The notes under the pieces: generated by a model
The model's input: the letters and a program-made list of their open reading frames with translations, nothing else
Told to the model about the DNA's origin: nothing
Databases searched by the model: none
Translations under genes and position numbers: made by a program
Assembly (NCBI GenBank): GCA_018606645.1
Contig: JAGVRI010000003.1
Location: forward strand, 27,322 to 91,321
Length of the DNA stretch: 64,000 bases
Direction of reading: 5' to 3'
Source: Chloroflexota bacterium
GTDB lineage: Bacteria > Chloroflexota > Anaerolineae > JAAYZQ01
In this document: piece by piece, positions 33,407 to 51,063 of the stretch
Layout of the letters: the number at the start of each line of letters is the position of its first letter
Numbering within the stretch: the first letter of the stretch is position 1

Positions 33407-33430
33407 CAGGGGCACTGCACGGAGGGCCCA

Positions 33431-35038
33431 GTGAAACAGGCTGAGAAGGGTTGGACGCATCAGTGGCTGGTGATGGGGATGGTGGCCCTGTTGAGCACGG
33501 GTCTCTACCCGCTCTACTCCTATCTCGGCGGCCATCTCGGCTTTCCGCTGGACGACGCCTGGATCCACCAGACCTACGCCCGCAATCTGGCCCAGACCGG
33601 ACAGCTTGCCTATCGGCCCGGTCAGCCTAGCGCCGGGTCCACCTCGCCAGCGTGGAGTTTCCTTCTTTCCCTGGCCTACCTGGTCGGTCTGGACTACCGC
33701 TTATGGGCCTACCTATTGGGCGGGCTGGCGTTGGCCGCCAGCGCCTGGCTCACCCGCCGCCTCTTTCTGCGTCTGGCTCCCCGGCGCCCCCAGGCCGCCC
33801 TGTGGACCGGGCTCCTGGTTGCCACGGAGTGGCACCTGGTCTGGGCTGCGGCGTCGGGCATGGAAACGATGCTCTTTACCGCGCTGTCGCTGGCGCTCCT
33901 GGATTATTTCTGGGGCTACGCGGCCGGGCCGTCCGCCGCTACCGGACCGGTCAGTCTCCAGACGGAGCGGACGATGGTCAGCGCCGTCGGCATCGGCTTG
34001 CTGGGCGGGCTGCTGGTGGTCACCCGACCGGAAGGACTGGGATTGGCGGCGTTGGTGGCCGTCGCATTTCTGGTGGTTCCAGGTCCTACCGGCCGCAAGA
34101 TGACCAGGACGCGCTTCCTGGCGGCCGGGGCGTTGCTGGCGGCCTTTGGGCTGATTGCGGGGCCCTATGTGGCCTTTAACCTGAGGACGGCGGGAGCGGT
34201 CTTTCCCACGACCTTCTATGCGAAACAGACCGAATATCAGATCTCCCTTGCGCTGCCGGTCCGTTTCTGGCAGGTACTGAGCCCCACCTTGGTCGGCGCT
34301 CAGGTGCTGCTCCTGCCCGGCCTGGGCTATGGGCTCTATCGGCTGCTGCGCCACATCCTTTCTCATCGGAACGCTGCTCATGGTGAGCCCAAGCGCTTGG
34401 AAATCGTGCCGGCGCTCTTGCCGCTGGGATGGTGGGCGGCGCTGCTCGTCGTCTACACCCTGCGTTTGCCGGTCGCGTACCAGCATGGCCGCTATGTCAT
34501 GCCCACCATCCCGCTGCTCCTCCTCTACGGTTCCTGGGGCACGGCCGAGTTGCTGCGCCCACGCTCTTCTCAGCCGTGGCAGCGCGTGCTCAGTCGAAGC
34601 GTGCTTGCGGCCCTGATCCTGCTGGTGGGGTGGTTCTGGGGACGGGGGGCGATCGCCTACCGCGATGAAGTGGGCTTTATTGAGGGGGAGATGGTGGCCG
34701 TTGCCGAATGGCTGAATGAGCATACAGACCCCGGAGACTGGATCGCGGTGCATGACATTGGCGCCATCGGATATTTTGCCGATCGCCCGCTTCTGGACCT
34801 GGCCGGATTGATCAGTCCGGAGGTGATCCCGTTCATGACCGATGCAGAGAGGCTGATGAACTGGATCGCCGAGCGGGGGGCCAGGTATCTCGTCTTTTTC
34901 CCTGACTTTTCGACCACCTATCGCCGGCTTTCGACGGATCCCAGGCTCCAGGTGGTCTATTGCACCGACCATGCCTGGACGCGGCAGCAGGGACATGAGA
35001 ATATGTGCGTGTACCGCCTTACGAGTATCGTTCCGTGA
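33431..35038 (+). CDS. GT-C fold polytopic membrane glycosyltransferase-like protein
   Basis: Loop motif FPLDDAWIHQTYARN, many TM segments, C-terminal soluble domain ending ARYLVFFPD shared with paralogs. Confidence 0.6.
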   Translation: MKQAEKGWTHQWLVMGMVALLSTGLYPLYSYLGGHLGFPLDDAWIHQTYARNLAQTGQLAYRPGQPSAGSTSPAWSFLLSLAYLVGLDYRLWAYLLGGLALAASAWLTRRLFLRLAPRRPQAALWTGLLVATEWHLVWAAASGMETMLFTALSLALLDYFWGYAAGPSAATGPVSLQTERTMVSAVGIGLLGGLLVVTRPEGLGLAALVAVAFLVVPGPTGRKMTRTRFLAAGALLAAFGLIAGPYVAFNLRTAGAVFPTTFYAKQTEYQISLALPVRFWQVLSPTLVGAQVLLLPGLGYGLYRLLRHILSHRNAAHGEPKRLEIVPALLPLGWWAALLVVYTLRLPVAYQHGRYVMPTIPLLLLYGSWGTAELLRPRSSQPWQRVLSRSVLAALILLVGWFWGRGAIAYRDEVGFIEGEMVAVAEWLNEHTDPGDWIAVHDIGAIGYFADRPLLDLAGLISPEVIPFMTDAERLMNWIAERGARYLVFFPDFSTTYRRLSTDPRLQVVYCTDHAWTRQQGHENMCVYRLTSIVP

Positions 35039-35587: not shown

Positions 35588-36277
35588 ATGCACAGAATCA
35601 CGGTCATGTTGGTGGACGATCATCCTGTTTTCCGCCAGGGCTTGCGTCGAGTACTGGAGAGCGAAGATGACCTGGAAGTGATCGCCGAGGTGGACGATGG
35701 CCTGGAAGCCCTGCGTCTGGCCAAGGAGATGGTCCCCGATGTGATGCTGCTGGATATTAACCTACCGGGCATGAACGGCCTCCAGGTGGCCCGCGCCCTG
35801 AAAGACACCCTGCTGGAGATCAACATCATCATGTTGACCGCCTATCATGATGATCAACAGGTGTTCCATTCGATCCAGGCCGGCGCCTCGGCCTACTTTC
35901 CCAAGGATGTCAGCCCACGACGGTTGATCGAGGCGATCCGATTGGTACACCAGGGGTGTTATGTGGTCGAAGATCGGGTGCTGGAAAAGCCTCAGGTGGG
36001 CCAGTGGCTTCTCGAGCAATTTGAGCGGATCTCGCCGAACGCAGACGGGGATCTGGGCGGGCTGTTGTTGCCGTTGTCTCCGCGCGAGATGGAGATCCTG
36101 CTCTTTATCGCCCAGGGCAAGAGCAACAAGGAAATTGCGTACGAGCTGGGCATCAGTCGCCAGACGGTCAAGAACCACATGACCAGCATCCTGCGCAAGC
36201 TGGCGGTGAACGATCGCACCCAGGCGGCCATCTATGCGCTGCGCCGGGGTTGGATCCGTCTCCAGGATATTGGCTGA
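35588..36277 (+). CDS. LuxR/NarL-family response regulator (DegU-like)
   Basis: Receiver (VMLVDDHP...LLDINLPGMNG) plus C-terminal LuxR HTH (LSPREMEILLFIAQGKSNKEIAYELGISRQTVKNH). Confidence 0.9.
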   Translation: MHRITVMLVDDHPVFRQGLRRVLESEDDLEVIAEVDDGLEALRLAKEMVPDVMLLDINLPGMNGLQVARALKDTLLEINIIMLTAYHDDQQVFHSIQAGASAYFPKDVSPRRLIEAIRLVHQGCYVVEDRVLEKPQVGQWLLEQFERISPNADGDLGGLLLPLSPREMEILLFIAQGKSNKEIAYELGISRQTVKNHMTSILRKLAVNDRTQAAIYALRRGWIRLQDIG

Positions 36278-36350
36278 GGGAATGACAGATCGTCCTGTCG
36301 AGAGGGATTCATCTCTTGCCTCGGATCCTGAACCAGAAGGTTCTGAAATC

Positions 36351-37442
36351 ATGAATGTCTCGAATGAGGTGAGGTGGATGGCGGAAGAACAGGCTCAGAC
36401 CGGCATGGAACTGCTCACCGCTCTGATTCAGGAGAGCCAGAGCGACTATGAGCAGCTTCAGAAGGAACTCAAAGAGATCGATGTCCTCATCCGACAAAGC
36501 GCCACCGAGGTGGAGAAGCTGACCCAGCGCAACTCGCAGATGGGCAACCGGGTGCGCCAGATGGAGATGAACCTCGACACCTACCCCCGCAACGATATCC
36601 GCGAGATCTATCTCGCCGCCCACGAGATCCAGATGCGCCTGTTCATGATGCGCGGGCAACTGGAGCAACTGCAGAATCGCCAGCAAAGCCTGGAGCAGCA
36701 GAGCCAATACCTGGCGCGGCTGATTGACATCCTGAGCCAGATCGCGCCCTCTGACCTTGTTCGAGACGTGAACCGCGCCCATCCGGCGGTGCATAGCGAC
36801 GTGGTGCGCGTCATCGAAGCCCAGGAGAATGAACGCCAGCGGCTGGCGCGGCAGATCCATGACGGGCCGGCGCAATCGCTCACCAATCTGATCCTGCAGG
36901 CCGAGATCTGCGAGCGGCTCTTTGACACCGATCCGGTCCAGGCCCGCGTTGAACTGGGCAATCTCAAGAACTCGGTGAATGCCACCTTCCAGAAGATCCG
37001 CGAGTTTATCCTGATGTTGCGCCCGATGATGCTCGATGACCTGGGCCTCATGCCGACGCTGAAGCAGTACGTCCAGGATTTTGAGGAAAAGACGCGACTT
37101 TCCACCAGTTTGACGATCATGGGGCGTGAGAGCCGGCTTCCTTCCTACACCGAGGTGACCATCTTTCGCATGATCCAGGAATTGCTGAACAATGTGCGCA
37201 TTCATGCCCATGCCAGCCATGCCCAGGTGACCCTCGATTTTCAGGATACAATGGTCGTGGTCAGCGTCGAAGATGACGGTAGCGGCTTTGATGTGGAAGA
37301 GGTGCAGAAGGCGATCCAACAGCGGAAGGGGTTGGGGCTGCACACCATCCAGGAACGGGCCGAAATGCTGGGCGGCCGCGTCCAGTTGGACAGCCGCATT
37401 GGGCGTGGGACCCGGGTTCGGATTGAAATTCCAATAGAATAG
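36351..37442 (+). CDS. cytoplasmic sensor histidine kinase, HisKA_3 family (DegS-like)
   Basis: No TM segments; N-terminal coiled-coil region, H-box ERQRLARQIHDGPAQSL, HATPase_c; RBS GAAGG upstream of ATG 36351. Confidence 0.85.
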   Translation: MNVSNEVRWMAEEQAQTGMELLTALIQESQSDYEQLQKELKEIDVLIRQSATEVEKLTQRNSQMGNRVRQMEMNLDTYPRNDIREIYLAAHEIQMRLFMMRGQLEQLQNRQQSLEQQSQYLARLIDILSQIAPSDLVRDVNRAHPAVHSDVVRVIEAQENERQRLARQIHDGPAQSLTNLILQAEICERLFDTDPVQARVELGNLKNSVNATFQKIREFILMLRPMMLDDLGLMPTLKQYVQDFEEKTRLSTSLTIMGRESRLPSYTEVTIFRMIQELLNNVRIHAHASHAQVTLDFQDTMVVVSVEDDGSGFDVEEVQKAIQQRKGLGLHTIQERAEMLGGRVQLDSRIGRGTRVRIEIPIE

Positions 37443-37455
37443 TACTTCTGTACTA

Positions 37456-37484
37456 TTGAAAATTAGAACTAGATCAGTTATAAT
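37456..37484 (+). promoter_or_regulatory. consensus sigma70-type promoter TTGAAA-N17-TATAAT
   Basis: ttgaaa 37456-37461, 17-nt spacer, tataat 37479-37484, in a strongly AT-rich island; ~65 nt upstream of flp. Confidence 0.6.
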
Positions 37485-37551: not shown

Positions 37552-37698
37552 ATGCTGTTTCTACCGCGCGAGGAAGGACAGGGGCTCGTTGAATATGCGT
37601 TGATTCTTGTTCTGGTGGCGATTGTGGTCATTGCCATTCTGCTCCTGGTCGGTCCGGCCGTGGGCAACGTCTTTAGCACCATCGTCAACGCCATCTAA
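37552..37698 (+). CDS. flp: Flp family type IVb pilin (48 aa)
   Basis: MLFLPREEGQGLVEYALILVLVAIVVIAILLLVGPAVGNVFSTIVNAI: Flp motif G/(E/Q)GxVEYALIL, hydrophobic stretch, Gly cleavage site; strong RBS AAAGGAGG. Confidence 0.85.
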   Translation: MLFLPREEGQGLVEYALILVLVAIVVIAILLLVGPAVGNVFSTIVNAI

Positions 37699-37730
37699 CG
37701 ACCGAGCGACAGCGACCCTGTCAACGAACG

Positions 37731-37770
37731 GAAGAGCCTCACCCCTCAGGTGGGGCTCTTCCCCTTTTTG
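37731..37770 (+). terminator. intrinsic terminator downstream of flp
   Basis: gaagagccucaccccucagguggggcucuuc: 8 bp + U:G + 4 bp stem, 5-nt loop, followed by CCCCUUUUUG. Confidence 0.7.
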
Positions 37771-37979
37771 CGCTAGTACCAAGAGGCTATTGTCAACCGG
37801 GTAAATTCACCGTATACTAGAAACCGATGGCAGACAGAAGGTGGACGGCGAAGCGATTTGGAATGTCGGAGCAGGAATTGCGCCCTTGCCTGGCGCAGAG
37901 GTTGAGCGGGATGGCCCGTAGCCTCCCAGGATGTCCAGCCGTGGCTCGTGGTGGGCAGGGCCGTTGGAAGGTCGGGCCT

Positions 37980-38101
37980 GGGGCGAGGCATTCCGGGGAA
38001 CGGCGTATAAGGGCAGGTGGTTCTGGCCCATCCGCGGCGATTCAAACGGTAGGCGGCCACTGGGAATGCCTCGCCCCTACAATGTCAGAGAATGCAACAG
38101 C
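37980..38101 (+). repeat. ~120-bp repeat family B, copy 2
   Basis: ggggcgaggcattccgggg...ttctggcccatccgcggcgattcaaacggtagg...gggaatgcctcgcccctac...gagaatgcaacagc; same orientation as copy 1. Confidence 0.7.
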
Positions 38102-38567
38102 CCTACCTGGTGGGAAGAGGCCCTGGCGTGAGCATCCGCTTTGGGAGGAGGGGCAGAGCCTGCTGGAAATGTCGGTGGGTCTGGTGTTCCTGCTGGGGAT
38201 CGTGCTGGTCCTGTTTGAGGGAGCATTGCTGTTTCACTCCTACATTGCCTTGCTGAATGCAGCGCGAGAAGGGGCAGTGTATGCCTCTCTCCATCCGACC
38301 ATGAGTCCGGGGACATCCGAGTATGCGCAATATGAATCGGTCACGCGCACCGAAGCAACAGCCGCCGGGTTGCTGACCGATCCGGCGTACTTTCAGATCG
38401 ACCCGCCCCAGACGCCGGAGGGCACCGACCCGTTGGATCCGATTATCGTGACGGTCCATTATCAGTTGATCAATCCGATGCAAGGCCTTATCCTTCCTTT
38501 CTTTGGACGGATGGGCTTGTTCGATAGTGTATGGATGACGGCGGCTACGGAGATGCCGATCCGGTGA
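38082..38567 (+). CDS. TadE-like pilus assembly protein (pseudopilin)
   Basis: N-terminus EEGQSLLEMSVGLVFLLGIVLVLFEG matches TadE/TadF GQxxVEFAL motif; long ORF extension back to 37827 runs through repeat B and is rejected. Confidence 0.65.
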   Translation: MSENATALPGGKRPWREHPLWEEGQSLLEMSVGLVFLLGIVLVLFEGALLFHSYIALLNAAREGAVYASLHPTMSPGTSEYAQYESVTRTEATAAGLLTDPAYFQIDPPQTPEGTDPLDPIIVTVHYQLINPMQGLILPFFGRMGLFDSVWMTAATEMPIR

Positions 38568-38625
38568 ACGGCCGGGGAGTAGAGAGTAGATGCGAATTCT
38601 TGTCTTGAGGCAGCGCGACAGCCGG

Positions 38626-39063
38626 ATGGTTGGCCAGGAAGGCCAGGCGATGACCGAATTTGCGCTTTCGATGACGTTGTTGGTCGCCCTGCTGGTGGGG
38701 ATTATCGCCCTGGCCTGGGTCGGCTTTTGTTATGTGAGCATCACCAGCGCGGCGCGCATGGGAACGCGGCACATGATCACCTATCCGACCAGCCCCCAGG
38801 ATCCGCACCGCTTTGCCAATGTGGATGCGGAGATCACCTATGTGGTCACCAGTTCGATGCCGATGCTGGACTGGCGCCAGGCGACGATCATCATCCTGCC
38901 CCAACCGCCGGCCAGTCGGCTCTCAGGCACCCAGGTCTCGGTCCAGATCGTGTATCCGATGAATACGCCGACGATCCGAATCCCGTATGGGTTGAGGGAG
39001 GGATCTTTCGTGCTGTTACCGCCGATTACGCTGAATGCCACATCGCGGATGCGGCTGGATTGA
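38626..39063 (+). CDS. TadE-like pilus assembly protein (pseudopilin)
   Basis: GQEGQAMTEFALSMTLLVALLVGIIAL; alternative start 38590. Confidence 0.65.
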   Translation: MVGQEGQAMTEFALSMTLLVALLVGIIALAWVGFCYVSITSAARMGTRHMITYPTSPQDPHRFANVDAEITYVVTSSMPMLDWRQATIIILPQPPASRLSGTQVSVQIVYPMNTPTIRIPYGLREGSFVLLPPITLNATSRMRLD

Positions 39064-39126: not shown

Positions 39127-40200
39127 ATGTCTCATCGAGAAAAAGAAAGTGGTCAGTCAATTGTAATCATTGCGTTTGCCATCATGATGCTTTTGGCGCT
39201 GGTGGCGATCGTCGTGGATGTGGGCAATGCCTATGCCCACCGCCGGATGGTGCAAAATGCGGTGGACGCGGCTGCCCTGGCCGGGGCGCGGAAACTGGCC
39301 GACCGGATGGTGGCGAGTAACCCGGACAGCGTGAAACATATCCACGTGTCCTATCAGATCAGGCGCTATGCGCAAGAGAACGGCCTGCCGGTGAGCGAAC
39401 CCGGCATCCTCCAGGCGTGGTTCATTGACAAGAACGGGAATCGGCTCGAACAGGTGCGGCCCAGCCCGGATTTCATCAATCCCCAGGCCAGAGGGGTTGA
39501 GGTCATTGGCAAGCTGCCCTTTACGACCTATTTTGCCCACCTGCTTGGTTTCTCGACGATGGAGGCGGCTACCTCCGCCCGCGCCTGGGTGCTGCGCGGT
39601 CCCTGCAATGGGGATAGTCTGTTCCCGGTAGGGATCGCTCAGAGTATCTTTGGAGGCGGTGGCGTTCCTCAACCTGGGACAACCTACACCATGTGGGACA
39701 AGACCAAGGAGGCGCCCGGTCAATTCGGCTGGCTGTACTGGAAGGACGGGAACGGTGTGGTGCGGGGAACCGAGCCGCCGCAGCAGAACTCGAACACGAC
39801 CAATCTGGCGGCAAACATCCTGGACACCTCACGCAGCGGTGCGTGGCGGGTGAATGATTGGGTGCACGGCAGCAGCGGCGTCAGCTTCCAGCCGGTCCTG
39901 GATGAGCTGGAACAGAGGATGGGTTCTTCCCACACCGTCATCGTCCCGATCTACGATCAGGTTTCGGGAACGGGGGACAACGCCGTGTACCGAATCGTGG
40001 GCTTTGGCGCCTTTCAGATGACCTGCGCCTATAGCTCAAAGAGCCATTATGTGGAAAATCCGAGTGGGTCGTGCGCTCCTTGTCGGGAGGAAGACAAACC
40101 GTGCATCCGAGGGACGTTCGTGCGGATGATCGAACCGAGCGGCGACGATGGGTGCCTGGACACCGGCGTCGTCATCCCTTCGTTCCGGATGCCCAAATAG
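39127..40200 (+). CDS. TadG-like / Tad_N-domain pilus assembly protein
   Basis: N-terminus ESGQSIVIIAFAIMMLLALVAIVVDVGNAYAHRRMVQNAVDAAALAGA typical of putative Tad-like Flp pilus-assembly (PF13400); RBS GGAGGTG. Confidence 0.7.
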   Translation: MSHREKESGQSIVIIAFAIMMLLALVAIVVDVGNAYAHRRMVQNAVDAAALAGARKLADRMVASNPDSVKHIHVSYQIRRYAQENGLPVSEPGILQAWFIDKNGNRLEQVRPSPDFINPQARGVEVIGKLPFTTYFAHLLGFSTMEAATSARAWVLRGPCNGDSLFPVGIAQSIFGGGGVPQPGTTYTMWDKTKEAPGQFGWLYWKDGNGVVRGTEPPQQNSNTTNLAANILDTSRSGAWRVNDWVHGSSGVSFQPVLDELEQRMGSSHTVIVPIYDQVSGTGDNAVYRIVGFGAFQMTCAYSSKSHYVENPSGSCAPCREEDKPCIRGTFVRMIEPSGDDGCLDTGVVIPSFRMPK

Positions 40201-40215
40201 CCCTTTCTCGATGAT

Positions 40216-40251
40216 CCTGAGCGAGGGCGGGCGTTCCCCCCCTCGCTCAGG
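40216..40251. repeat. perfect 12-bp stem / 12-nt loop hairpin after TadG-like gene
   Basis: cctgagcgaggg-cgggcgttcccc-ccctcgctcagg; no downstream T-run. Confidence 0.5.
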
Positions 40252-40420
40252 ACCTGGGCCAACCGGCCGCGGGCATGAATCCGCATCCTCATGCTCCCGC
40301 GGTCAAATCACAAACCAGGCAATGGCCAGGAAAAGTGTTCCGCCGTACCCCCTGGCGCGATCAGGAAGGAAGCTGAAACCCATGCAAGCGACTGTCAACT
40401 GCCCGAGGAGAAGAAACCCG

Positions 40421-43400
40421 ATGTTCCGGTCTCTGCTGCTCGCCGTGCCCCTGGGACTTCTGGGAGTGCTTGTCTTTGTCCTCTCCTCCAACGCGTACGT
40501 CACCCAGAAGGGCGAGACCACGCTGGTGGATTTCGATAGCGGCACCTTTATCTACACCGGGTTGCTGGATATCCCCGAGCAGGGGATCGATAGTGTGCAG
40601 TTGCTGCCCATCGGATTGACCGGGGACTGGGAGGTGGCCAATCGGTCGTTGCCGCTTCGGCTGACGGACCATGCCGTGGTTGCGCACGGGGACGCCATCT
40701 ATGTGGTCGGTGGCACTGACGAGGAGTATGCCGTCCATGATGAGGTATTCATGACCCAAATGTCCCTGGACGGACAGCTCTCCCCCTGGCAATCCCAGAA
40801 CCCACTGCCGGACCCTCGCTCTGCCGCCGCGATCGCGACCTACCGATTGGACGCGGACAATTCATTCCTGTATGTGCTCGGAGGAATCGGATCTGACTTT
40901 GGTGCCACCGACACGGTATACTATGCGCCCATCAATGATGAGACGGGAGAGCTCGGGGCCTGGCAACTGGACAGTCAAAGCCTCCCCAATCCGGTCTACT
41001 ATGCGGCTGCGGTCGAGCATGATGGCGCCCTGTATGTCATCGGCGGGGCGGGTGATACCGTCTTTGATCAGGTGTACTATGCGACGGTCCAGGAGGATGG
41101 TTCATTGGGTTCGTTCATCGCCACCTCCTCGCTTCCCGAACCGCTGTACGACGGTCTGGCCATCGTCTATGAGGGGGAGCCGGTCGATACGCTGTACTAT
41201 ATCGGCGGTCGGAACGCCATTACCTCTACTTTCAAGGTCTATTTTGCCGACTTTGTGCCCGGTGGAGGCTTGAGCGCCTGGCAACTTTCTCAAGGCAATC
41301 TGCCGGGTCACCTCTTTGGCCACGACGGCACCTTGCTGAGCGGGGAGATCATCCTCACTGGGGGGATTGTGGATTCCATCAATCCATACGTCGGCATTTC
41401 CAACACCGTGGAAGCGGCTCTGGTGGATCCTGGCAACCCGGCATTTCGCCTGTACGACTGGTGCCTGGGGGTGCCGCCTCCGACCTGTACCATCGGCGCC
41501 TGGCAAACCGGGAGTCTACTCCCGGACGTGCGCGCCCGTCATGGCATGGCCTCCGGCCACGGGCATCTCTACGTCCTGGGTGGAGTGGATTCCACCCAAT
41601 ACCCACGAGATACCATCTATGTGGGTTCTGTCACCGGCTTTGGCGCGCGCTACTCGCCGGAGGGGTATTACATTTCTGACCCGATTGACCTGGGGCCGGG
41701 GGTGGCCCTTCGGCGGCTGAGTTGGGGGACGACCATTCACGATCCTGCTCACATGGGGCTGGAGATGCAGTTCCGCCACACCAGCGACGGTCAAATCTGG
41801 TCCGAGTGGTCCACACCCATTCCTTCCATCAGCGGCACGAACCAGATTGACCTGGATCCGCCACTGACCGGGGTCCACTATCTCCAGTATCGGGCCCACC
41901 TGACCACGACTGTCTCCCATGCGTCTCCGCTCCTGGATTGGGTGGAGATCTACTATGAGGTTCCGGATCCAGAGGTTGCGGTGTATAAGGACACCGGTGG
42001 GGTGATGACCGTGACTCTGGGCGACCACCTGGAATATACCATCTACTACACCAACTATGGCGGGTGGACGGCCGAGAATGTGGTCCTCACCGAGACCCTG
42101 CCGGCGCACACGAGCTACGTAGGAGGGTCAGGTTGGCATCAGGTGGCCGGTACCAATATGTATACCTATGACGTCGGCAACCTGGCGCCCGGAGCGAGCG
42201 GCAGCGTTCCCTTCCCGATCAAGGTGAATGACGACGTGCCTCTCGAGACCCGGTATCTCACCAATACCATCGAAATCGCCTACCCTCCCATGCTCGACGC
42301 GCTGGCGGAGTGGGTGACCGATCCGGAACCGGGCAATAATACCTTTGCGCTGGCGACCCGCTTTAGCCCGTATGCGATCACCGTTGCCAAAGACTCGGAG
42401 CCACCGCCGGGCGAACCGGTCGCTCCCGGCGAGATCATCACCTATATCCTGACCTACTCCAACCCGGTGGGAGCGGTCAGCGTTCCGCAGGCCTACCTCC
42501 TCGATGCGCTCCCGGAGCATGTCAGCTATATTCCGGGCTCCATCTTTGGGCCCGGGGCGGACGCCAGCAACCCACGAGAGCTCCGCTGGGACCTCGGCGT
42601 CGTCGGACCTGGGGAGACGTATCAGGTGGGCTATGCGGTCCAGGTGGATTCCTCGACTCCGTTGGGAACTGTCCTGTCGAATACGGCCACCCTGTACAGC
42701 GATATCGGTCCTCCCAGGACGAGCAATTGCGTCGAGACTCTGGTCGTGGACAAGACGTACCGGGTAGAGGTCAACAAGGAGGCGGTGCCCTCTCCGGGGA
42801 GCACCGTGGCTCCTGGCTCGCTGATCCACTACACTCTGTATTACACCAACGCCGGCTTTATCGCGGCCAGCCAGGCGGTGTTGACCGAGGTCTTTGATCT
42901 GAACCAGAGCTACTCGCTGGTGTCGGCCGATCCGCCGCCGGACGTGATGCCCAATGTCTGGCACCTGGGCGCGCTGGGACCTGGCCAGAAGGGGGCGATT
43001 GACCTGGTGGTCCAGCTCGACGACGTGTTGCCCAGTCACTGGATCGTCAGCAACCAGGCCGTGATCGATAGCCCGGAAGGGGTGCCATCGTATACTCCGG
43101 TCATCACGCACCTGGTCATGAATCCACCGGAGGTCCCCCTGGTTGATCTGGTGGTGGGGAAGGTGCGCATGGAGCCTGCTGAACCCAAGCCGGGCGAACC
43201 GGTGGCGTTCTACGTAACGATCTCCAACACAGGCAACCTGAACGCCAGCGGCTATTTCTGGGTGGAGTTGTACGTCAAGTCTGCGCCCTCGGAACCTCCC
43301 CGTGGGCCCTCTGACCATGATCAGGGGTACTGCCTGAACGGGTGCTCGATCGTGCGCCCGTACCATCTGGTGCTGGTCAACAGTCTGGGGAAGGGGGCGA

Positions 43401-43621
43401 AGAAGGAGATCAAGTTCGCAAACGAGAAGTTGTTCTTCCCCACGGAGGGCGCCTATGATGTGTATGTGCAGGTGGACGTGGCCTTTGACGATCCACGTTA
43501 CAGCCCATATTGGGGCTTTTATCCGGAACACCATGAAGGCAACAACATCGTCCACGAAACGGTGTTCATTGGCGGGGTACCGCGATACTATTTGCCCGCG
43601 GTGTACAAGCGGTGGCCATAG
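40421..43621 (+). CDS. large secreted/anchored protein with Kelch-like beta-propeller and multiple DUF11 domains (candidate pilus-associated adhesin)
   Basis: 1066 aa; signal/anchor MFRSLLLAVPLGLLGVLVFVL; repeated ...YVxGG... blades (AIYVVGG, FLYVLGG, ALYVIGG, LYYIGG, LYVLGG), then several DUF11-type repeats (GDxLEYTIYYTNxG..., GEIITYILTYSN, GSLIHYTLYYTNAG); RBS GAGGAG. Confidence 0.7.
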   Translation: MFRSLLLAVPLGLLGVLVFVLSSNAYVTQKGETTLVDFDSGTFIYTGLLDIPEQGIDSVQLLPIGLTGDWEVANRSLPLRLTDHAVVAHGDAIYVVGGTDEEYAVHDEVFMTQMSLDGQLSPWQSQNPLPDPRSAAAIATYRLDADNSFLYVLGGIGSDFGATDTVYYAPINDETGELGAWQLDSQSLPNPVYYAAAVEHDGALYVIGGAGDTVFDQVYYATVQEDGSLGSFIATSSLPEPLYDGLAIVYEGEPVDTLYYIGGRNAITSTFKVYFADFVPGGGLSAWQLSQGNLPGHLFGHDGTLLSGEIILTGGIVDSINPYVGISNTVEAALVDPGNPAFRLYDWCLGVPPPTCTIGAWQTGSLLPDVRARHGMASGHGHLYVLGGVDSTQYPRDTIYVGSVTGFGARYSPEGYYISDPIDLGPGVALRRLSWGTTIHDPAHMGLEMQFRHTSDGQIWSEWSTPIPSISGTNQIDLDPPLTGVHYLQYRAHLTTTVSHASPLLDWVEIYYEVPDPEVAVYKDTGGVMTVTLGDHLEYTIYYTNYGGWTAENVVLTETLPAHTSYVGGSGWHQVAGTNMYTYDVGNLAPGASGSVPFPIKVNDDVPLETRYLTNTIEIAYPPMLDALAEWVTDPEPGNNTFALATRFSPYAITVAKDSEPPPGEPVAPGEIITYILTYSNPVGAVSVPQAYLLDALPEHVSYIPGSIFGPGADASNPRELRWDLGVVGPGETYQVGYAVQVDSSTPLGTVLSNTATLYSDIGPPRTSNCVETLVVDKTYRVEVNKEAVPSPGSTVAPGSLIHYTLYYTNAGFIAASQAVLTEVFDLNQSYSLVSADPPPDVMPNVWHLGALGPGQKGAIDLVVQLDDVLPSHWIVSNQAVIDSPEGVPSYTPVITHLVMNPPEVPLVDLVVGKVRMEPAEPKPGEPVAFYVTISNTGNLNASGYFWVELYVKSAPSEPPRGPSDHDQGYCLNGCSIVRPYHLVLVNSLGKGAKKEIKFANEKLFFPTEGAYDVYVQVDVAFDDPRYSPYWGFYPEHHEGNNIVHETVFIGGVPRYYLPAVYKRWP

Positions 43622-43651
43622 TGACCGGCTCAATTCGGGTTGAGGAGAAAA

Positions 43652-43680
43652 TTGCCATTCACGCAATTTTCTGGTAGAAT
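43652..43680 (+). promoter_or_regulatory. candidate promoter TTGCCA-N17-TAGAAT with overlapping inverted repeat
   Basis: Inverted repeat gaaaattgc-cattcac-gcaattttc (43648-43672) overlaps the spacer; ~240-nt leader to cpaB. Confidence 0.4.
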
Positions 43681-43918
43681 AGAATCTAGTGCTCACCAAT
43701 GCGGCTTCAGGCAAATGAGATTCCTCGATGATCGGTTCCTGGCCGGAAGGGCGAGCGACTGGATGCTTTCGCAGGCGGTCCGAGGGTAGCGCGGTTCCGC
43801 CCGAGTGGCGGTCACTGCTGGCCATGGAGGAGATCATACACGGAGACAGGCCGATCCGATGGTTGATGGGGGGACGACCAGACCTGTCTAGCGCAGAGCA
43901 AAACATGGAGGAGAACCG

Positions 43919-44842
43919 ATGCGTCGTGGTAGAATCCTGATCTTGTTGGGCCTGATCCTGGCGATTGGCACCGCTGCGATCGTGTTCATCATGCTCCAGG
44001 GGGCAGCCGGCAGCAAGGGAACGGTAGAGGTAGAGCGGGAAGAGGTGGTGGTCGCCATTCAACCCATCCCCGAGGACGAGCCGGTGGAAGGGCGGATCGA
44101 GATTCGGGCCATGCCCAAAGAATCGATACCGGTGAACGCCCTCCGTTCTCTGGACGAAGCAACGGGAATGCTGGCCGCCGGGCCGATTCCGCAGGGCACC
44201 ATACTCCAACCCGATCTCTTGATCAGCCCGGCGGAGCTGATGCAGCAGGGCAAGTTGGGGAAATTGATCGAACCTGGGTTTGTCGCCGTGGCCTTTCCGA
44301 TCGATGAGCTTTCCAGCGTATCGTACGGAATCCAGCCTGGCGATCATGTGGATGTACTGATGAGCTTCTGGTTCATCGACCTTGACGCGGAAACTCAGAG
44401 CAAGGCGCCGATCTGTCCGCCCAGATGTGAGGCCGGGGCGGAGCAGACCCAGGCCGTTGTGGAGCAGCGTCCGCGGCTGGCTGCGCAACTGACGCTCCAG
44501 GATGCTGCTGTGCTTGGGGTTGGACGATGGAGCACCCAACCCGCAGTTACGGAAGCGGCTGCCACGCCGGAACCGCGAGAAGGTGAGGAAGCGGCTGTCG
44601 AACTACCTGAGTATATTACGCTCATGCTCACCCCTCAGGATGCCCTGGTCTTAAAGTTCGCCCGGGAATCGGGGGCCAGGATCGACCTGGCCGTCCGCGC
44701 CAAGGATGATCACCAGCAGTTCGTCACCCAGCAAGTCACCCTGGACTATATCCTGGCCCGCTTTGGCGTCTCCCTGCCGGCCCGGCAGCCCTACACCATC
44801 GAAGGGCTCGGGCAGGCGCCGCCGACCAGCCCGGAGGAGTGA
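43919..44842 (+). CDS. cpaB: Flp pilus assembly protein CpaB/RcpC
   Basis: N-terminal TM anchor then SAF domain (IPQGTIL...) and RcpC-like C-terminus. Confidence 0.8.
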   Translation: MRRGRILILLGLILAIGTAAIVFIMLQGAAGSKGTVEVEREEVVVAIQPIPEDEPVEGRIEIRAMPKESIPVNALRSLDEATGMLAAGPIPQGTILQPDLLISPAELMQQGKLGKLIEPGFVAVAFPIDELSSVSYGIQPGDHVDVLMSFWFIDLDAETQSKAPICPPRCEAGAEQTQAVVEQRPRLAAQLTLQDAAVLGVGRWSTQPAVTEAAATPEPREGEEAAVELPEYITLMLTPQDALVLKFARESGARIDLAVRAKDDHQQFVTQQVTLDYILARFGVSLPARQPYTIEGLGQAPPTSPEE

Positions 44843-44926
44843 TACCTGGTTTGCATGGTTGGGCGATGGAATCAGCCGGGGACGGACCGATGGTTGATGA
44901 TATCGGGGAAAGTGACTTGAGCAAGC

Positions 44927-46234
44927 GTGAGCGGGAAAATGGCGTCTACACCGACTGAAAAGATCCGTCTGCTCATCGTTGACGATATCCCAGAGACGCG
45001 GGAGAATCTGCGTAAGTTGCTCTATTTTGAGCCGGACATCGAGATCGTGGGCATGGCTTCGGATGGACGGTCGGCCATTGAGGAAGCCAAGAGGCTGCAA
45101 CCTCACATCGTGCTGATGGACATCAACATGCCGGACATGGATGGGATTACGGCCAGTCAGAAGATCAGCCAGGTAGCACCCATGTGCCAGGTGATCATGA
45201 TGTCGGTTCAGAGTGAGGCCGATTACCTGCGCCGTTCGATGCTGGCCGGTGCGACGGATTTCCTGACCAAGCCGTTCACCAGCGAAGAACTGACGAGCAG
45301 CATTCGCCGGGTCTATGAGATGGGGGCCAGTCGCCGCCTGGCCATGCCGGTCGTTCAGGAAGTCGAAGAAGGCGCTCCTGGATTGACTCCATCCGCCCGA
45401 CGCCCCCGAAAGGGAGGGAAGCTCTTGCTGGTGTACAGCCCGAAGGGAGGGACAGGCTGCAGCACGGTGGCGACCAATCTGGCCATCGCCCTGCACCAGG
45501 TGACAGCCCAGAAGGTTGCCCTGGTGGACGCCAGTTTCCAATTTGGCGACGTTGATGCGCTCCTGAACCTGCAGAGCAACCGTTCTATCGCGGATGCGGT
45601 CAGTCAGATCAAGACCCTGGATACGATGCTCCTCAGCGCTGTGCTCTCTGCCCACTCTTCGGGCATTCGGGTGCTGGCTGCGCCTCCCGGACCGGAGATG
45701 GCGGAGGCGATCAAAGCCGAGGATGTGAAAACGATTCTGACGCTGATGATCCAGGAATTTGACTTGATTGTGGTGGATTCGTGGAGCAATCTTGATGACA
45801 TGGTCCTGACGCTGATGGACCTGGCCGACCGCATCCTGGTGGTGATGACGCCCGAAATCCCTTCGATCAAGGACACCAAGTTGTTCCTTGAGATCGCCGA
45901 TGCGTTGCAATTCCCGCAGGAGTGCATTGACCTGATTCTCAACAAGGTCGTCCTGCGGGATGGCATTCGCGCGGATCAAATTGAGAGCAATTTGAAGCAC
46001 AAGATCCTGATCCAGTTGGACTTTGAACCCAAGGGCGTGCGACAGGCCATTAACCAGGGCCTGCCCTTGATCCTGGCCGAGCCCAAGCACCCTCTTTCGC
46101 AAAAGTTCCTGGCTCTGGCCCGGGAAGAGGTAGCGGTTCTGGAACCTCAGCCGCGAGGTGAAGCAGAGAAAGAGATCCATGAGGCAAAATCGGAACGTAA
46201 ACCGAGGCCCAGATTGTTTGGTCGGATGAAGTGA
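44927..46234 (+). CDS. cpaE: pilus assembly protein CpaE/TadZ (receiver domain + ParA/MinD-like ATPase)
   Basis: N-terminal receiver-like domain (RLLIVDDIPETRE), deviant Walker A KGGTGCSTVATNLA. Confidence 0.85.
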   Translation: MSGKMASTPTEKIRLLIVDDIPETRENLRKLLYFEPDIEIVGMASDGRSAIEEAKRLQPHIVLMDINMPDMDGITASQKISQVAPMCQVIMMSVQSEADYLRRSMLAGATDFLTKPFTSEELTSSIRRVYEMGASRRLAMPVVQEVEEGAPGLTPSARRPRKGGKLLLVYSPKGGTGCSTVATNLAIALHQVTAQKVALVDASFQFGDVDALLNLQSNRSIADAVSQIKTLDTMLLSAVLSAHSSGIRVLAAPPGPEMAEAIKAEDVKTILTLMIQEFDLIVVDSWSNLDDMVLTLMDLADRILVVMTPEIPSIKDTKLFLEIADALQFPQECIDLILNKVVLRDGIRADQIESNLKHKILIQLDFEPKGVRQAINQGLPLILAEPKHPLSQKFLALAREEVAVLEPQPRGEAEKEIHEAKSERKPRPRLFGRMK

Positions 46235-46255
46235 TGTTCAGAAAAGAGGTGGAAT

Positions 46256-47644
46256 ATGTCGTTATTAAGACGGATTGAGAGGAACCAGCAGGTGGCGGTG
46301 GATCAACTGACACCCGTGGCAGAGCATTCCACCCGGTTGGAGGAATTGCGCATTCGTCGTGCACCGGCTGCGCCGGCGCGGGATGCCTTTCAGGACTTGA
46401 AGAGTCGGATCCATAACAAGCTGCTGGCTGAACTCGACCCCAAAATGGATGTCTCCAAGACGGATGAAGTGCGCCAGACGATCGAAGAGATGTATGATGC
46501 GATGCTGGCGCAGGAGAATCTGATCCTGGGTCGAGCGGACCGCCAGCGTCTGTTAGAGCAGATTGTGGCCGAGATCCTGGGCTATGGTCCCATCGAGCCG
46601 TTGCTGGCCGATGATACGATCACTGAGATCATGGTGAACGGACCCAACGCCGTCTATATTGAACGAGCCGGACGGATCGAGCCCACCGACATCCGATTCG
46701 AAAACGATGAGCATGTGTTGCGGATCATTGACCGGATTGTCTCACCGTTGGGACGCCGGATTGATGAAAGCCAGCCGTATGTGGATGCGCGTCTGCCGGA
46801 TGGTTCGCGGGTCAATGCGGTCATTCCACCTCTATCGCTGATCGGCCCGGTGTTGACCATCCGCAAATTTGCTCGGATCCCGATCACGGCCCAGACGCTG
46901 ATTGAGCTGGGGACGATTACCCCGGAGGCCCTCGAGTTCTGCAAGGCTTGCGTCCAGGCCAAGCTCAATATGGTGATCTCCGGAGGCACTGGCTCCGGAA
47001 AGACGACCACGCTGAACGTCTTTTCTGCCTTTATTCCTAATGACGAACGGATCATCACCATCGAAAATGCGGCGGAGCTTCAGCTCCAGCAAGATCACGT
47101 CATCCCGCTGGAAACGCGGCCGCCCAACGTCGAAGGCAAGGGTGAGATCACCATGCGGCAGCTCGTGATTAACAGTCTGCGGATGCGCCCGGATCGGATC
47201 ATTGTCGGGGAATGCCGGGGGGCGGAGGCCCTGGACATGTTGCAGGCCATGAATACGGGCCACGACGGGAGCATGACCACAGCTCACTCGAACAGTCCAC
47301 GCGATACGCTGGCCCGTCTGGAAACGATGGTGTTGATGGCCGGCATGGACCTGCCGTTGCGAGCGATCCGCGAACAGATCGCTTCCGCGCTGCACCTGGT
47401 TGTGCATCAGGAGCGGATGCGCGATGGAAGCCGCAAGATCACCAAGATCACCGAGGTCCAGGGGATGGAAGGCGACGTGATCGTCATGCAGGACATTTTC
47501 ACCTTTGAGCAGCAAGGGATCGAGGGGGGGAAGGTGATCGGCCGGCTCAAGCCCACCGGAATTCGCCCCAAATTTATGGAGATCATCGAGGCGGCCAATA
47601 TCCACCTGCCGCCTACGATCTTTGGCATGGGAAGACGGTACTAA
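46256..47644 (+). CDS. cpaF: Tad secretion ATPase CpaF/TadA
   Basis: Walker [11 protein letters not shown]2SS/T4SS ATPase motifs ([18 protein letters not shown]). Confidence 0.9.
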
Positions 47645-47659
47645 CAGGGTAATCCGAGG

Positions 47660-48634
47660 ATGGGGTCCTTACAACCTTTGATGAATCCGGTCGTATTGGC
47701 CCTACTGGCGGCAGTCGCTGTGTTCCTGCTCTTCGCCGGCCTCCACTGGATTGGAATGGCCCGCGAGCAGGCGGTTGAGGAGCGGCTGGATCGGTACGGC
47801 GGTCGCGCGGAGGAGGAGAAGAAAAAGCCCAAGCGGGAAAAGCGGCGGGCTGCTGTCGAGGGCATCGAGGAGATTGTATCGCGCCGGAGCTTTGCCGCCG
47901 GTGTGCGGGAGGACCTGGCCCAGGCCGATCTGAAACTGCGCGTGGCCGAATATCTGGGACTGATCGCGCTGAGCACGTTCGTTTTCTTTTTGGTGGCTCG
48001 CTGGATCTTTGACTCGGTCCTGCTGGGCCTGGTGTTCGGCGTCGTCGGCTTTTTCGCGCCGCGCTTTTATGTGGACCTGCGCAAGAGACGTCGTCTAAAC
48101 GCCTTCAATGACCAGTTGGGAGACTGTATCACCCTGTTGGCCAATTCCCTCCGTTCGGGCTTTAGCATCGTCCAGTCCATGGATACGGTGGCTCAGCAGT
48201 TGCCCAATCCGATCGCGGCCGAGTTCCGCCGCGTCACCCAGGAAATCGGACTCGGACTCCACTACGAAGAGGCCCTCAACAACATGCTGCGGCGCGTTCC
48301 CAGTGAAGACCTGGACCTGATGATCACCGCCATCAACATTCAGGGCAAGGTGGGCGGCAACCTGGCCGAGATCCTGGACACCATCGGACATACCATCCGC
48401 GAGCGGGTGCGGATCAAGGGGGAGATCCGGGTCCTTACCGCCCAACAGATGATTTCGGGGTACATTCTCACCGGCTTGCCGGTTGCTCTGGGGTTGGTGT
48501 TATATCTGATCAACAAGACCTACATCAGCCGCATGTTCAGTGAGCCGTGTGGATGGATCATGCTCGGTGTGGCGTTCAGCATGCTGGTCTTTGGCTTTCT
48601 GGCCATCCGCAAGATCGTCAGCATCGAGGTGTAG
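47660..48634 (+). CDS. tadB: Tad inner-membrane platform protein TadB
   Basis: T2SSF domain, TM segments N- and C-terminal. Confidence 0.8.
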   Translation: MGSLQPLMNPVVLALLAAVAVFLLFAGLHWIGMAREQAVEERLDRYGGRAEEEKKKPKREKRRAAVEGIEEIVSRRSFAAGVREDLAQADLKLRVAEYLGLIALSTFVFFLVARWIFDSVLLGLVFGVVGFFAPRFYVDLRKRRRLNAFNDQLGDCITLLANSLRSGFSIVQSMDTVAQQLPNPIAAEFRRVTQEIGLGLHYEEALNNMLRRVPSEDLDLMITAINIQGKVGGNLAEILDTIGHTIRERVRIKGEIRVLTAQQMISGYILTGLPVALGLVLYLINKTYISRMFSEPCGWIMLGVAFSMLVFGFLAIRKIVSIEV

Positions 48635-48697
48635 CATGAGGTCCACCAATGGGCGGCTGGAAGGGATTGAGCCTGTGACGAGATTGGGAGAGAACTG

Positions 48698-49630
48698 ATG
48701 CCCCCAGTCATAATGTTCGGCATTGCCTTTATGGTGTTCCTGTCTCTCATGCTCATCATCGTGGGCATTGCTTCTCCACGGCCCGCCGATCAGGTGGAAA
48801 GCCGGTTGATGGAGTACGGGAGCCGGCCGATGACGCTGGAAGAGATCGAGCTGGCTCAACCGTTCAGCCAACGGGTCCTTATCCCGATGGTCCGGGCCAG
48901 CGCAGAATTTGTGTCTCGTTTCACTCCGCAACACAGCCTGGAAGCGACGCGCCACAAGCTGGATCTGGCCGGCAACCCCAACAATTGGAGCGCCACCGAT
49001 TTCTTGGGCATTCGCGGCCTGGCTGCGTTTGTGTTAGGGGCCCTTACCTTTGTGTTGACGATGCTGGCCAACACGGCATTTACCCAGCGCCTGCTGTTCA
49101 CGGGGGTCATGGGGCTGCTGGGCTTTTTTCTACCCGTGATCTGGTTGGGGCGACGGATCCGAAGCCGTCAAGCGGAGATTGTCAAGACTCTGCCGGATGC
49201 GCTGGACCTGCTCACCATCAGTGTGGAGGCGGGTCTGCCGTTCGATGGGGCGATGCAACGGGTTGCCGAGAAATGGGATAATGAGATCAGCAAAGCGTTT
49301 CGGCGCCTGCTCGCCGAGATGCGCATGGGCAAGTCCCGCCGTGAGGCCCTCCGGGATATGGCCGACCGGATGGACGTGCCGGATGTGACCAGCTTTGTGG
49401 CCGCGTTGATTCAGGCCGATCAACTGGGTATCAGTATTGCCAAGATCCTGCGCATCCAGTCCGAGCAGATGCGGATCAAGCGCCGTCAGCGGGCTGAGGA
49501 AAAGGCGCAGCAGGCGCCGATCAAGATGCTCATCCCGATGACGTTTCTGATCTTTCCGACCATTCTGATCGTCATCCTGGGACCAGCGATCCTGATTCTC
49601 AAGAATTCGCCTATCTTCCGGGTGATGTGA
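48698..49630 (+). CDS. tadC: Tad inner-membrane platform protein TadC
   Basis: T2SSF domain; paralogous to TadB. Confidence 0.8.
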   Translation: MPPVIMFGIAFMVFLSLMLIIVGIASPRPADQVESRLMEYGSRPMTLEEIELAQPFSQRVLIPMVRASAEFVSRFTPQHSLEATRHKLDLAGNPNNWSATDFLGIRGLAAFVLGALTFVLTMLANTAFTQRLLFTGVMGLLGFFLPVIWLGRRIRSRQAEIVKTLPDALDLLTISVEAGLPFDGAMQRVAEKWDNEISKAFRRLLAEMRMGKSRREALRDMADRMDVPDVTSFVAALIQADQLGISIAKILRIQSEQMRIKRRQRAEEKAQQAPIKMLIPMTFLIFPTILIVILGPAILILKNSPIFRVM

Positions 49631-50467: not shown

Positions 50468-50502
50468 AACAGGAAGCTATATTGTCAGTAAGGAGAGTGG
50501 AA

Positions 50503-51063
50503 ATGGAACTGATCATCAAGGGCAAGAACGTAGAAGTCACGGATCGGCTTCGCGATTATGTCCGGAAAAAGGTCGGCAAGCTCGACCGCTATCTGCCGTC
50601 CATTACCGAAGCGTGGGTGGAGCTGTCGGTGGAAGGCACCAGAGCGGCCCAAGATCGGCAGGTGTGTCAGCTTACCGTACGGTCCAACGGCACAATCTTG
50701 CGGGCGGAAGAGCGCTCGGAGGACATTTTCAACTGCATTGACAACGTTCTGGACAAGATGTATCGCCAAATCGCCCGTTACAAGGGCAAACGGAAGAACC
50801 GCTGGCGAGGAGCAGGGACCACGATTGAGCCTCTTCCCCCGGAATATGAGGAACTCGAAGAGGAACTTGAAGAGGAGACCAGCAGCATCGTCCGGGTCAA
50901 GCGGTTCCCCATGACGCCCATGAGCCCGAGTGAAGCGATTGAGCAGATGGAGCTGTTGGGTCACGACTTTTTTGTCTTTTTCAATGCCGATGAAGGGCAG
51001 ATCAACGTTCTGTATCGGCGCAAAGATGGCAACTATGGGTTGATCCAACCCGAACTTGCCTAG
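50503..51063 (+). CDS. hpf: ribosome hibernation promoting factor, long form
   Basis: MELIIKGKNVEVTDRLRDYV... RaiA/HPF N-domain plus C-terminal dimerisation domain. Confidence 0.9.
   Translation: MELIIKGKNVEVTDRLRDYVRKKVGKLDRYLPSITEAWVELSVEGTRAAQDRQVCQLTVRSNGTILRAEERSEDIFNCIDNVLDKMYRQIARYKGKRKNRWRGAGTTIEPLPPEYEELEEELEEETSSIVRVKRFPMTPMSPSEAIEQMELLGHDFFVFFNADEGQINVLYRRKDGNYGLIQPELA

Follow-up and report, generated by a model that had tools for sequence, protein, structure and literature searches.

In the Tad (Flp, type IVc) pilus locus of a Chloroflexota bacterium (GCA_018606645.1), the gene of a TadG-like minor pilin is followed by a gene for a large protein with a Kelch beta-propeller head, a stalk of CLIPPER (DUF11) domains and a C-terminal CARDB domain that ends in a short basic tail; it is referred to below as the Kelch protein. 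The locus was analyzed in a stretch of 64,000 nt (contig JAGVRI010000003.1, positions 27,322-91,321, forward strand), here called the window, to which all coordinates refer unless a related locus (L and a number) is named. The Kelch protein is very probably a dedicated pilus-linked adhesin, because its gene always sits within the Tad cluster; a pilus-associated adhesin is supported by the architecture predicted from the sequence and by strict synteny. With modest confidence, a more specific reading is favored, i.e., that the protein is a dedicated non-pilin accessory adhesin of a secretin-less Anaerolineae Tad system, displayed via a C-terminal attachment signal that is general in Chloroflexota. 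In this case, a fibrillar adhesin with an undescribed C-terminal signal would have become a fixed part of the Tad locus.

In Tad systems, adhesive functions have been assigned to the minor pilins TadE, TadF and TadG/CpaL, and a partner of the PilY1 type is thought to be lacking (PMC13533445, PMC12075869). Literature searches on Kelch proteins in chloroflexotan Tad loci gave no relevant hit, and no comparable protein of any Tad system is described in the literature searched. A conserved, propeller-headed non-pilin protein encoded between tadG and cpaB across a whole class would be a component of a new kind in Tad systems and would offer a handle on adhesion of filamentous Chloroflexota to surfaces and to each other. 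Activated sludge and sediments harbor these filamentous bacteria in large numbers; they lack a secretin, and their envelope is unusual.

The open reading frame (ORF) of the Kelch protein ends with a stop codon at 43621. An earlier interpretation made from the DNA alone (below, the sequence-only reading) had placed the start at ATG 40421, which yields 1066 residues and is preceded at a distance of 10 nt by the ribosome-binding site GAGGAG. The frame and this site stand, but the in-frame ATG at 40382 (MQATVNCPRRRNPMFRS...; 1079 residues), with GGAAGGAAG 9 nt ahead, is the more likely start, because the N-terminus obtained in this way agrees with that of an 84% identical homologue (P0002) and gains a basic n-region. 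The mature protein is identical from either start, and residue numbers are counted from ATG 40421. A longer frame from 40148 was discarded; it runs into tadG and is given no support by the homologues. Comparison with the 84% identical relative in L008 gave a ratio of nonsynonymous to synonymous substitution rates (dN/dS, omega) of 0.09, i.e., purifying selection, and on this evidence the frame is a real gene; an 803-residue frame on the minus strand (42128-44539) is therefore taken to be a shadow ORF.

The domain composition was obtained from profile searches and from an AlphaFold2 model of the full-length protein, based on an alignment of 74 family members (mean predicted local distance difference test score, pLDDT, 90.4); the C-terminal module was also modeled alone (32 sequences, pLDDT 92). 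From the N-terminus, the protein consists of a signal peptide, a strand segment, the propeller, a beta-sandwich, three CLIPPER/DUF11 domains, CARDB and the tail (Table 1). The sequence-only reading had counted at least five Kelch blades and at least three DUF11 repeats, and the profiles and the model yield six and three, respectively. The propeller is matched by PF24681 (61.6 bits) and, in three stretches, by Kelch_1 (PF01344), above the gathering threshold, and it holds a conserved disulfide loop, DWCxGVPPPxCTIGAWQ (C348-C356). The beta-sandwich (residues 406-515) gave no match in a Pfam search. In the stalk, DUF11/CLIPPER (PF01345) reaches 85.3 bits (cut-off 24.6) in four stretches, accompanied by DUF7927 and DUF7507 matches in Pfam and by TIGR01451 in NCBIfam (73.3 bits, three stretches); the three Ig-like domains are modeled at pLDDT ~90. 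CARDB (PF07705) scores above the cut-off of its hidden Markov model, and the CARDB fold is present in the model. The mature protein has a mass of ~112 kDa and an isoelectric point of 4.4 (4.1 for the head), the only basic part being the 16-residue tail. It is too acidic for a DNA receptor of a competence pilus, a candidate that had been prompted by a comFC-like gene after tadC.

At the N-terminus, the signal follows the consensus TANA/YV, an AxA site in which Ala25 (position -1) is invariant across 74 sequences. Judged from this conservation, the Kelch protein is predicted to be cut by signal peptidase I (SPase I) after Sec export; of the signal or anchor seen at this place in the sequence-only reading, the signal was thus confirmed, and it is cleavable rather than merely an anchor. 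The Flp, TadE-like and TadG-like proteins of the window all carry prepilin G/Q sites (Table 1). The Kelch protein has no G/xxxxE prepilin site and instead displays SNA/YV followed by beta-strands, which excludes a pilin or pseudopilin.

A head on a tandem stalk of variable length displays hallmarks of fibrillar adhesins, in which the conserved CARDB and YLP end would be the means of attachment, and together with the signal peptide this layout bears out the earlier view of an adhesin-like surface protein. CLIPPER domains are load-bearing, isopeptide-bonded stalk units in such adhesins, although the bond is absent in some DUF11 domains (PMC12617251). In the first CLIPPER domain of the Kelch protein, a candidate triad is formed by K523, E558 and N640, each at least 90% conserved; candidate residues in the second and third domains are K657/D695 and K786/E823, respectively. 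The stalk is therefore probably cross-linked by isopeptide bonds. A close described example of this kind is Acinetobacter silvestris B9T28_05395 (PDB 9IFR), with which the Kelch protein shares an N-terminal head, a tandem CLIPPER stalk, Lys, Asp/Glu and Asn at the corresponding positions and a C-terminal attachment region (PMC12617251). It differs from CLIPPER fibrillar adhesins in that the head is composed of a propeller and a sandwich, the gene is fixed in a pilus operon, and the anchor consists of CARDB and the YLP peptide rather than an OmpA-like domain, LPXTG or an element of type I or type V secretion. Another DUF11-rich protein of a surface appendage in Chloroflexota, also with an N-terminal hydrophobic stretch, is GhlA of Litorilinea aerophila; in contrast to the Kelch protein, it has 6,596 residues and 49 DUF11 domains, forms trimeric filaments, is encoded outside a tad locus and has no Kelch head (bioRxiv 10.1101/2025.08.19.671072).

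In a Foldseek search with the whole model, integrin alpha ectodomains were the top matches (E ~1e-20), at a template-modeling score of only ~0.2, i.e., the domain layout alone is alike. Both have a propeller head on an Ig-like leg, but integrins have a head of seven FG-GAP blades and the Kelch protein one of six Kelch blades, so that integrin alpha is an architectural analogue and no homology is implied. The head itself resembles six-blade Kelch folds in general. A conserved cluster of PMT_2 membrane glycosyltransferase genes upstream (in the window, L010 and L028) and a sub-threshold similarity to NanM could be taken to suggest an extracellular enzyme or lectin, e.g., a mutarotase- or oxidase-like Kelch protein acting on pilin glycans or exopolysaccharide. 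This is highly improbable, given that the scores fall far under the family cut-offs (21 vs 243 bits), that protein-binding Kelch domains are matched just as strongly in fold, that the invariant residues of the head are the structural Kelch set GG, W and R-x-x-H, and that an enzyme would need neither a variable stalk nor an attachment module. Nothing in the analysis suggests the substrate-recognition module that had also been proposed in the sequence-only reading.

A homologue search in 5.8 billion proteins identified ~77 full-length relatives (29-84% identity), and those that are named all belong to Anaerolineae or to Chloroflexota metagenome bins; past these orthologues the matches are generic Kelch proteins alone. 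Gene neighborhoods were examined in the gene tables of four divergent relatives and by tblastn searches of 29 loci with the Tad proteins of the window, where only non-duplicate loci with enough flank were counted. Among informative loci, 18/18 have TadG upstream of the Kelch gene and 12/12 have CpaB downstream of it, even where identity is as low as 29%. The gene order is response regulator, histidine kinase, Flp, TadE, TadE, TadG and the Kelch gene, followed by CpaB, CpaE, CpaF, TadB, TadC, a ComF-like protein and HPF, with a gene for a sortase-anchored Ig protein sometimes inserted between the Kelch gene and cpaB. No orthologue of the Kelch head was found outside a tad locus among the loci examined; two generic Kelch relatives lie in unrelated neighborhoods outside tad loci. 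The position between pilin genes and cpaB and the link to a pilus locus, both proposed earlier, thereby hold, and the homologues are not scattered.

Because the homologues are all from one class, shared ancestry could explain part of this synteny, and the protein could be a surface adhesin that was inherited with the locus in one lineage and is functionally untied to the pilus. We assign this explanation a very small probability; the Kelch gene stays in place although the genes around it differ between loci (in the regulators, in the presence of a gene for a sortase substrate and in whether TadG has a VWA form) and although identity drops to 29%, and copies outside tad loci were not encountered.

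Conservation along the protein is uneven. The N-terminal segment, propeller, sandwich, first CLIPPER domain, CARDB and tail are occupied at a level of at least 0.94 across the family, and the head and the C-terminal module at a level of at least 0.97. The middle CLIPPER repeats vary in number from 0 to ~5, and orthologues range from 817 to 1337 residues in the family alignment. A distant subgroup (L005-L007; 31% identity, 760 residues) has zero CLIPPER repeats and consists of head, Pro/Thr linker, CARDB and a tail, NYLPYIRKSP; the stalk is therefore seen as an adjustable spacer. In the comparison with L008, the lowest omega values were obtained for the N-terminal segment (0.02), the tail (0.04) and the propeller (0.06), and the highest for the body of CARDB and for the second CLIPPER domain (~0.15). 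The N-terminal segment is also the most constrained part across the family (61-68% mean identity). As a whole, the Kelch protein (0.09) evolves at the pace of a minor pilin (TadG, 0.10), far above that of CpaF (0.02).

This pattern is relevant to the suggestion that the Kelch protein is a structural part of the Tad machine, i.e., an envelope-spanning tether or bushing that stands in for a secretin, with the head touching the pilus or the CpaB ring, the stalk crossing the zone of the wall and the C-terminal module held by a layer farther out. No secretin gene was found in the window or in any related locus tabulated, which fits Chloroflexota without a classical outer membrane; their envelopes are described as multilayered and free of outer-membrane markers (bioRxiv 10.1101/2025.08.19.671072). 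A conserved and strongly constrained head, an invariant place beside cpaB and a stalk length that could track envelope thickness would also suit a tether. We nevertheless consider it improbable, because tad operons and pili of other Chloroflexota are described without such a gene (bioRxiv 10.1101/2025.08.19.671072), and the protein is therefore not a general need of secretin-less Tad systems. Furthermore, stalkless orthologues exist, the apparently cleavable signal peptide would leave no membrane anchor near the machine, and the evolutionary pace is much faster than that of machine parts.

The C-terminal end of the Kelch protein is found in a wider context than its head. The tail is kept down to 29% identity, and its Pro1059 is invariant. 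It stays coil in the full-length model (pLDDT 46-62) and in that of the module alone (46-67 across both models), which gives no support to a strand folded back on CARDB in cis. Residues 901-1066 were scanned against 1.84 billion representative proteins, and a word-index search with the C-terminal domain as query returned 17 candidates. The module of CARDB and tail also ends unrelated large proteins, among them P0201 (1556 residues, with FG-GAP, VWA and DUF11 domains; ...KLYLPLIIKSLP), P0203 (1514 residues, many DUF11 domains; ...QVYLPVVLKNFYEE) and P0244 (1545 residues; ...QVFLPLVLRNR), and it ends P0235 (402 residues; ...AYLPIIRRK). The genes of P0201 and P0244 sit among housekeeping genes, outside tad loci. 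The tail motif closes 101 of the 112 module-bearing sequences, and without CARDB it ends a small secreted family represented by a gene in L029 (2734-3105, minus strand; ...PIRRIYLPLVTKQ), P0265 and P0266 (51% identity; ...PIRRVYLPLVLK). With this frequency and its recurrence in a second family, a chance match was dismissed. In a few proteins a tail-like motif is placed directly ahead of a CARDB-like domain.

Because the tail ends families both with and without CARDB, it would be an autonomous signal, general in Chloroflexota. An NCBIfam scan of the Kelch protein returned no sorting-signal model, and no mention of the YLP motif was found in the literature searched. The sequence [V/I]YLPxxx[K/R]xx(P), with no transmembrane helix after it, may thus be a signal, so far undescribed, by which surface proteins of the phylum are sorted or attached and whose reader would be an enzyme or a strand acceptor. 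As judged by sequence comparison, the Kelch head is the part specific to Tad loci and the attachment end is the generic part.

Sortase anchoring of the Kelch protein itself, which the sequence-only reading had listed as a point to check, is excluded; the protein ends ...RYYLPAVYKRWP, with neither an LPXTG motif nor a hydrophobic or transmembrane helix at the C-terminus. Sortase signals are found on neighboring genes. In L029 and L010, the product of a small gene located between the Kelch gene and cpaB has a signal peptide, a Pro/Thr linker, an Ig domain of the CarboxypepD_reg type and, as a sortase signal, MPQTG or MPATG with a transmembrane helix and Arg behind it. The corresponding product in L028 also holds a CarboxypepD_reg Ig domain, and a Pro/Thr-rich ORF of opposite orientation in L005 has LPSTG, a transmembrane helix and Arg at its end. 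Such a gene is missing from L008 and from the window, where a gap of 297 nt is found at this place. The relatives therefore use sortase, though not for the Kelch protein.

The accessory-adhesin reading would operate as follows. Once the protein has been exported and its signal removed, CARDB and the YLPxxx[K/R] peptide would attach its C-terminus to a carrier, for which one of the layers of the cell envelope is the most likely candidate. The acidic Kelch head would be held off the cell by the stalk, which would set its reach, and the head would bind a conserved ligand. Kelch ligands are usually glycans or peptides. Extension and retraction of the pilus and the Kelch adhesin would then act jointly in attachment.

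Several observations weigh against this reading. The head, with an omega of 0.02-0.06, is unusually constrained for an adhesin that faces the environment, and it could bind a component of the machine or of the pilus. The sortase substrates encoded beside the Kelch gene in related loci make a second anchoring route an extra assumption. The gene is strictly adjacent to tadG, as expected for a partner of the tip complex; the absence of Glu5 marks the apical subunit of type IV filaments (PMC13533445), and the window's TadG, which lacks Glu5, would therefore be apical. Finally, the lone tail is unstructured, like the strand-donating C-termini of PilC/PilY1 (PMC13533445).

The latter two observations lead to the main rival reading, a PilC/PilY1-like tip adhesin, which we regard as rather unlikely. 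Here, the Kelch protein would join a TadE-TadE-TadG priming complex, where its last ~10 residues would extend the pilin-like domain of TadG (or TadE) by a beta-strand, the Kelch head would form the adhesive end at the pilus tip, and the other tail-bearing proteins would be alternative tip cargoes. To our knowledge, no PilY1-type partner is known in Tad (type IVc) systems. The type IVa proteins PilC/PilY1 (Neisseria, Pseudomonas, Acinetobacter, Myxococcus) are likewise large non-pilins exported via Sec and SPase I, contain a beta-propeller, are encoded directly after an apical minor pilin without Glu5 (the pilX-pilY1 order) and end with a short conserved peptide, their last ~10 residues being a strand that docks onto a PilK-type pilin (PMC13533445). 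The tail of the Kelch protein is strongly constrained and unfolded in cis in two AlphaFold2 models, and a stalk of the isopeptide type would suit the loads of retraction (PMC12617251). The pilin-like domain of TadG closes with a loosely similar motif, ..(V/I)IPSFRxP[KR]; as a clear mimic of the tail it was rejected, given the loose resemblance and the internal place of the motif in TadG proteins of the long form.

However, the Kelch protein is not a PilY1 homologue, as neither sequence nor fold matches; its propeller is N-terminal and a canonical six-blade one, whereas that of PilY1 is C-terminal, and it belongs to a Tad system. A docking module shared with proteins outside tad loci, and a tail shared with the small CARDB-less family, argue against a tip partner. 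It is also the head that is conserved and confined to Tad loci, and not the end that attaches, which is opposite to PilY1. Where Tad systems have been studied, TadG/CpaL gives the strand in cis (PMC13533445), and the window's TadG retains its own C-terminal motif. Many related loci already have a VWA adhesin domain on TadG, and these VWA-containing forms resemble CpaL (PMC11870444). TadG/CpaL (Aggregatibacter, Caulobacter) is, like the Kelch protein, an adhesin-bearing element tied to the Tad tip complex; it is, however, pilin-like, with a prepilin site and its own C-terminal strand, whereas the Kelch protein has no pilin module and is encoded by an extra gene beside tadG. A conserved hairpin that separates tadG from the Kelch gene (see below) also speaks against a tip partner. 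The pilus-tip location proposed in the sequence-only reading is therefore a minority possibility.

In a related proposal, which we consider unlikely, the tail is read in trans by a strand acceptor; in the boldest form the acceptor would be the TadG-led tip complex, on which Sec-exported non-pilin tip adhesins would be interchangeable. In that case, the Kelch protein would be the default tip adhesin of the operon, with the FG-GAP, VWA and DUF11 proteins encoded elsewhere as alternatives, and it would provide the first PilY1-type strand addition in trans in a Tad (type IVc) system.

The sequence-only reading had placed a strongly structured leader and a promoter between the Kelch gene and cpaB. 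The promoter-like site is present; the leader is not, since this segment (43622-43918) folds no better than expected (z = -0.35) and has no Rfam match, and a riboswitch was rejected on the same grounds. A perfect 10-bp palindrome overlaps the -35 hexamer of the promoter-like site and is a candidate operator. The strongly structured RNA is found on the other side of the Kelch gene, where the 181-nt spacer after tadG folds above shuffled controls (z = -4.17). It contains a GC-rich hairpin without a T-run directly 3' of the tadG stop codon, the structure of which is kept in nearly all related loci with a different sequence each time (L008 9837-9874, with compensatory changes, and the same position in L003, L004, L006, L007, L013, L014, L018, L023 and L028). 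The hairpin could be an attenuator, a terminator-like or an mRNA-stabilizing element, and it probably tunes the expression of the Kelch gene relative to that of the minor pilins.

Table 1. Features of the Kelch-protein gene, its surroundings in the window and, at the end, small genes of related loci
Feature	Coordinates	Strand	Basis or remarks
Gene of the Kelch-CLIPPER-CARDB protein	40382-43621	+	ORF, homologues, dN/dS
Signal peptide (from ATG 40421)	40421-40495	+	h-region, then S-N-A/Y site; helix at residues 2-20 (AlphaFold2)
N-terminal strand segment of the mature protein	40496-40645	+	IDSVQLLPIGLTGxW; alignment, AlphaFold2 (residues 26-72), dN/dS
Six-bladed Kelch beta-propeller	40646-41635	+	GG doublets at residues 97, 154, 208, 262, 314, 387
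Beta-sandwich	41636-41965	+	W435, W460, QYR motif; AlphaFold2
Stalk, three CLIPPER/DUF11 Ig-like domains	41966-43120	+	residues 516-645, 646-775, 776-900
C-terminal CARDB domain	43121-43570	+	insertion GPSDHDxGYCLxxC and E..E.NN motif
Basic C-terminal peptide	43571-43618	+	...VPRYYLPAVYKRWP; motif [YF][LIM]Pxxx[KR]xxP; YYLPAVYKRWP
Structured spacer	40201-40381		RNA folding
GC-rich hairpin, 17-nt arms	40215-40252	+	RNA folding, locus comparison
Palindrome, candidate operator	43646-43672		AGAAAATTGC/GCAATTTTCT
Promoter-like site ahead of cpaB	43652-43680	+	TTGCCA-17-TAGAAT with TG
LuxR-type response regulator and HisKA_3 (DegS-like) histidine kinase	35588-37442	+	conserved ahead of the pilin genes in related loci
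Flp promoter-like site	37456-37484		TTGAAA-17-TATAAT, 11/12 match
Flp major pilin	37552-37698	+	prepilin site EEG/QGLVEYAL...
Flp terminator	37730-37762		14-bp stem
Second promoter-like site	37790-37818		ahead of the TadE genes
TadE-like minor pilin 1	38082-38567	+	EEG/QSLLEM, Glu5 present
TadE-like minor pilin 2	38590-39063	+	QEG/QAMTEF, Glu5 present
TadG-like minor pilin	39127-40200	+	ESG/QSIVII, no Glu5; ends ...GVVIPSFRMPK
Tad machinery: CpaB/RcpC, CpaE/TadZ, CpaF ATPase, TadB, TadC	43919-49630	+	CpaB, 43919-44842; CpaE/TadZ ATPase, 44927-46234
ComF-like phosphoribosyltransferase and HPF	49694-51063		after tadC
Membrane glycosyltransferase genes	25618-35038		GT2, PMT_2-type
942-residue protein with ILEI domain	52602-55430	+	ILEI, 62 bits
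Topoisomerase IB	15186-16907	+	573 residues
Small gene between Kelch gene and cpaB, L029	14331-15020
Small gene between Kelch gene and cpaB, L010	13368-14219
Small gene between Kelch gene and cpaB, L028	13333-14094
Small gene between Kelch gene and cpaB, L005	12228-12767	-

Within the Tad cluster, TadG was compared between the window and ORFs of L003, L004, L005, L013, L014 and L018. A short form of ~357 residues, as in the window, ends ...IPSFRxP[KR], and a long form of 720-800 residues extends past the pilin-like module, with VWA and CarboxypepD_reg/SdrD_B domains in L005 and L014/L029, as in CpaL of Caulobacter. The CpaE/TadZ ATPase bears an N-terminal receiver domain; together with the upstream pair of LuxR-type regulator and HisKA_3 kinase, this suggests phosphorelay control of the Tad system. 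The ComF-like protein (a double zinc ribbon and a phosphoribosyltransferase domain) and HPF are encoded at the same place after tadC in L002, L004-L008, L010, L012, L014 and L028; the ComF-like gene hints at a connection with DNA uptake, for which the Kelch protein is, however, too acidic as a DNA binder.

Ahead of the two-component system, the run of membrane glycosyltransferase genes is accompanied by genes that have no Pfam match; it recurs in L010 (240-3418) and in L028 (1-4648, with DUF2079) and could reflect glycosylation of pilins or of the envelope. Beyond the tad locus, both in the window and in L008, a protein with a C-terminal ILEI (interleukin-like EMT inducer) domain is encoded. 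Bacterial topoisomerase IB enzymes are usually short and poxvirus-like, and the full-length, eukaryote-type enzyme encoded in the window (Topoisom_I_N 180, catalytic core 209 and Topo_C_assoc 46 bits in Pfam) is therefore unusual for Anaerolineae.

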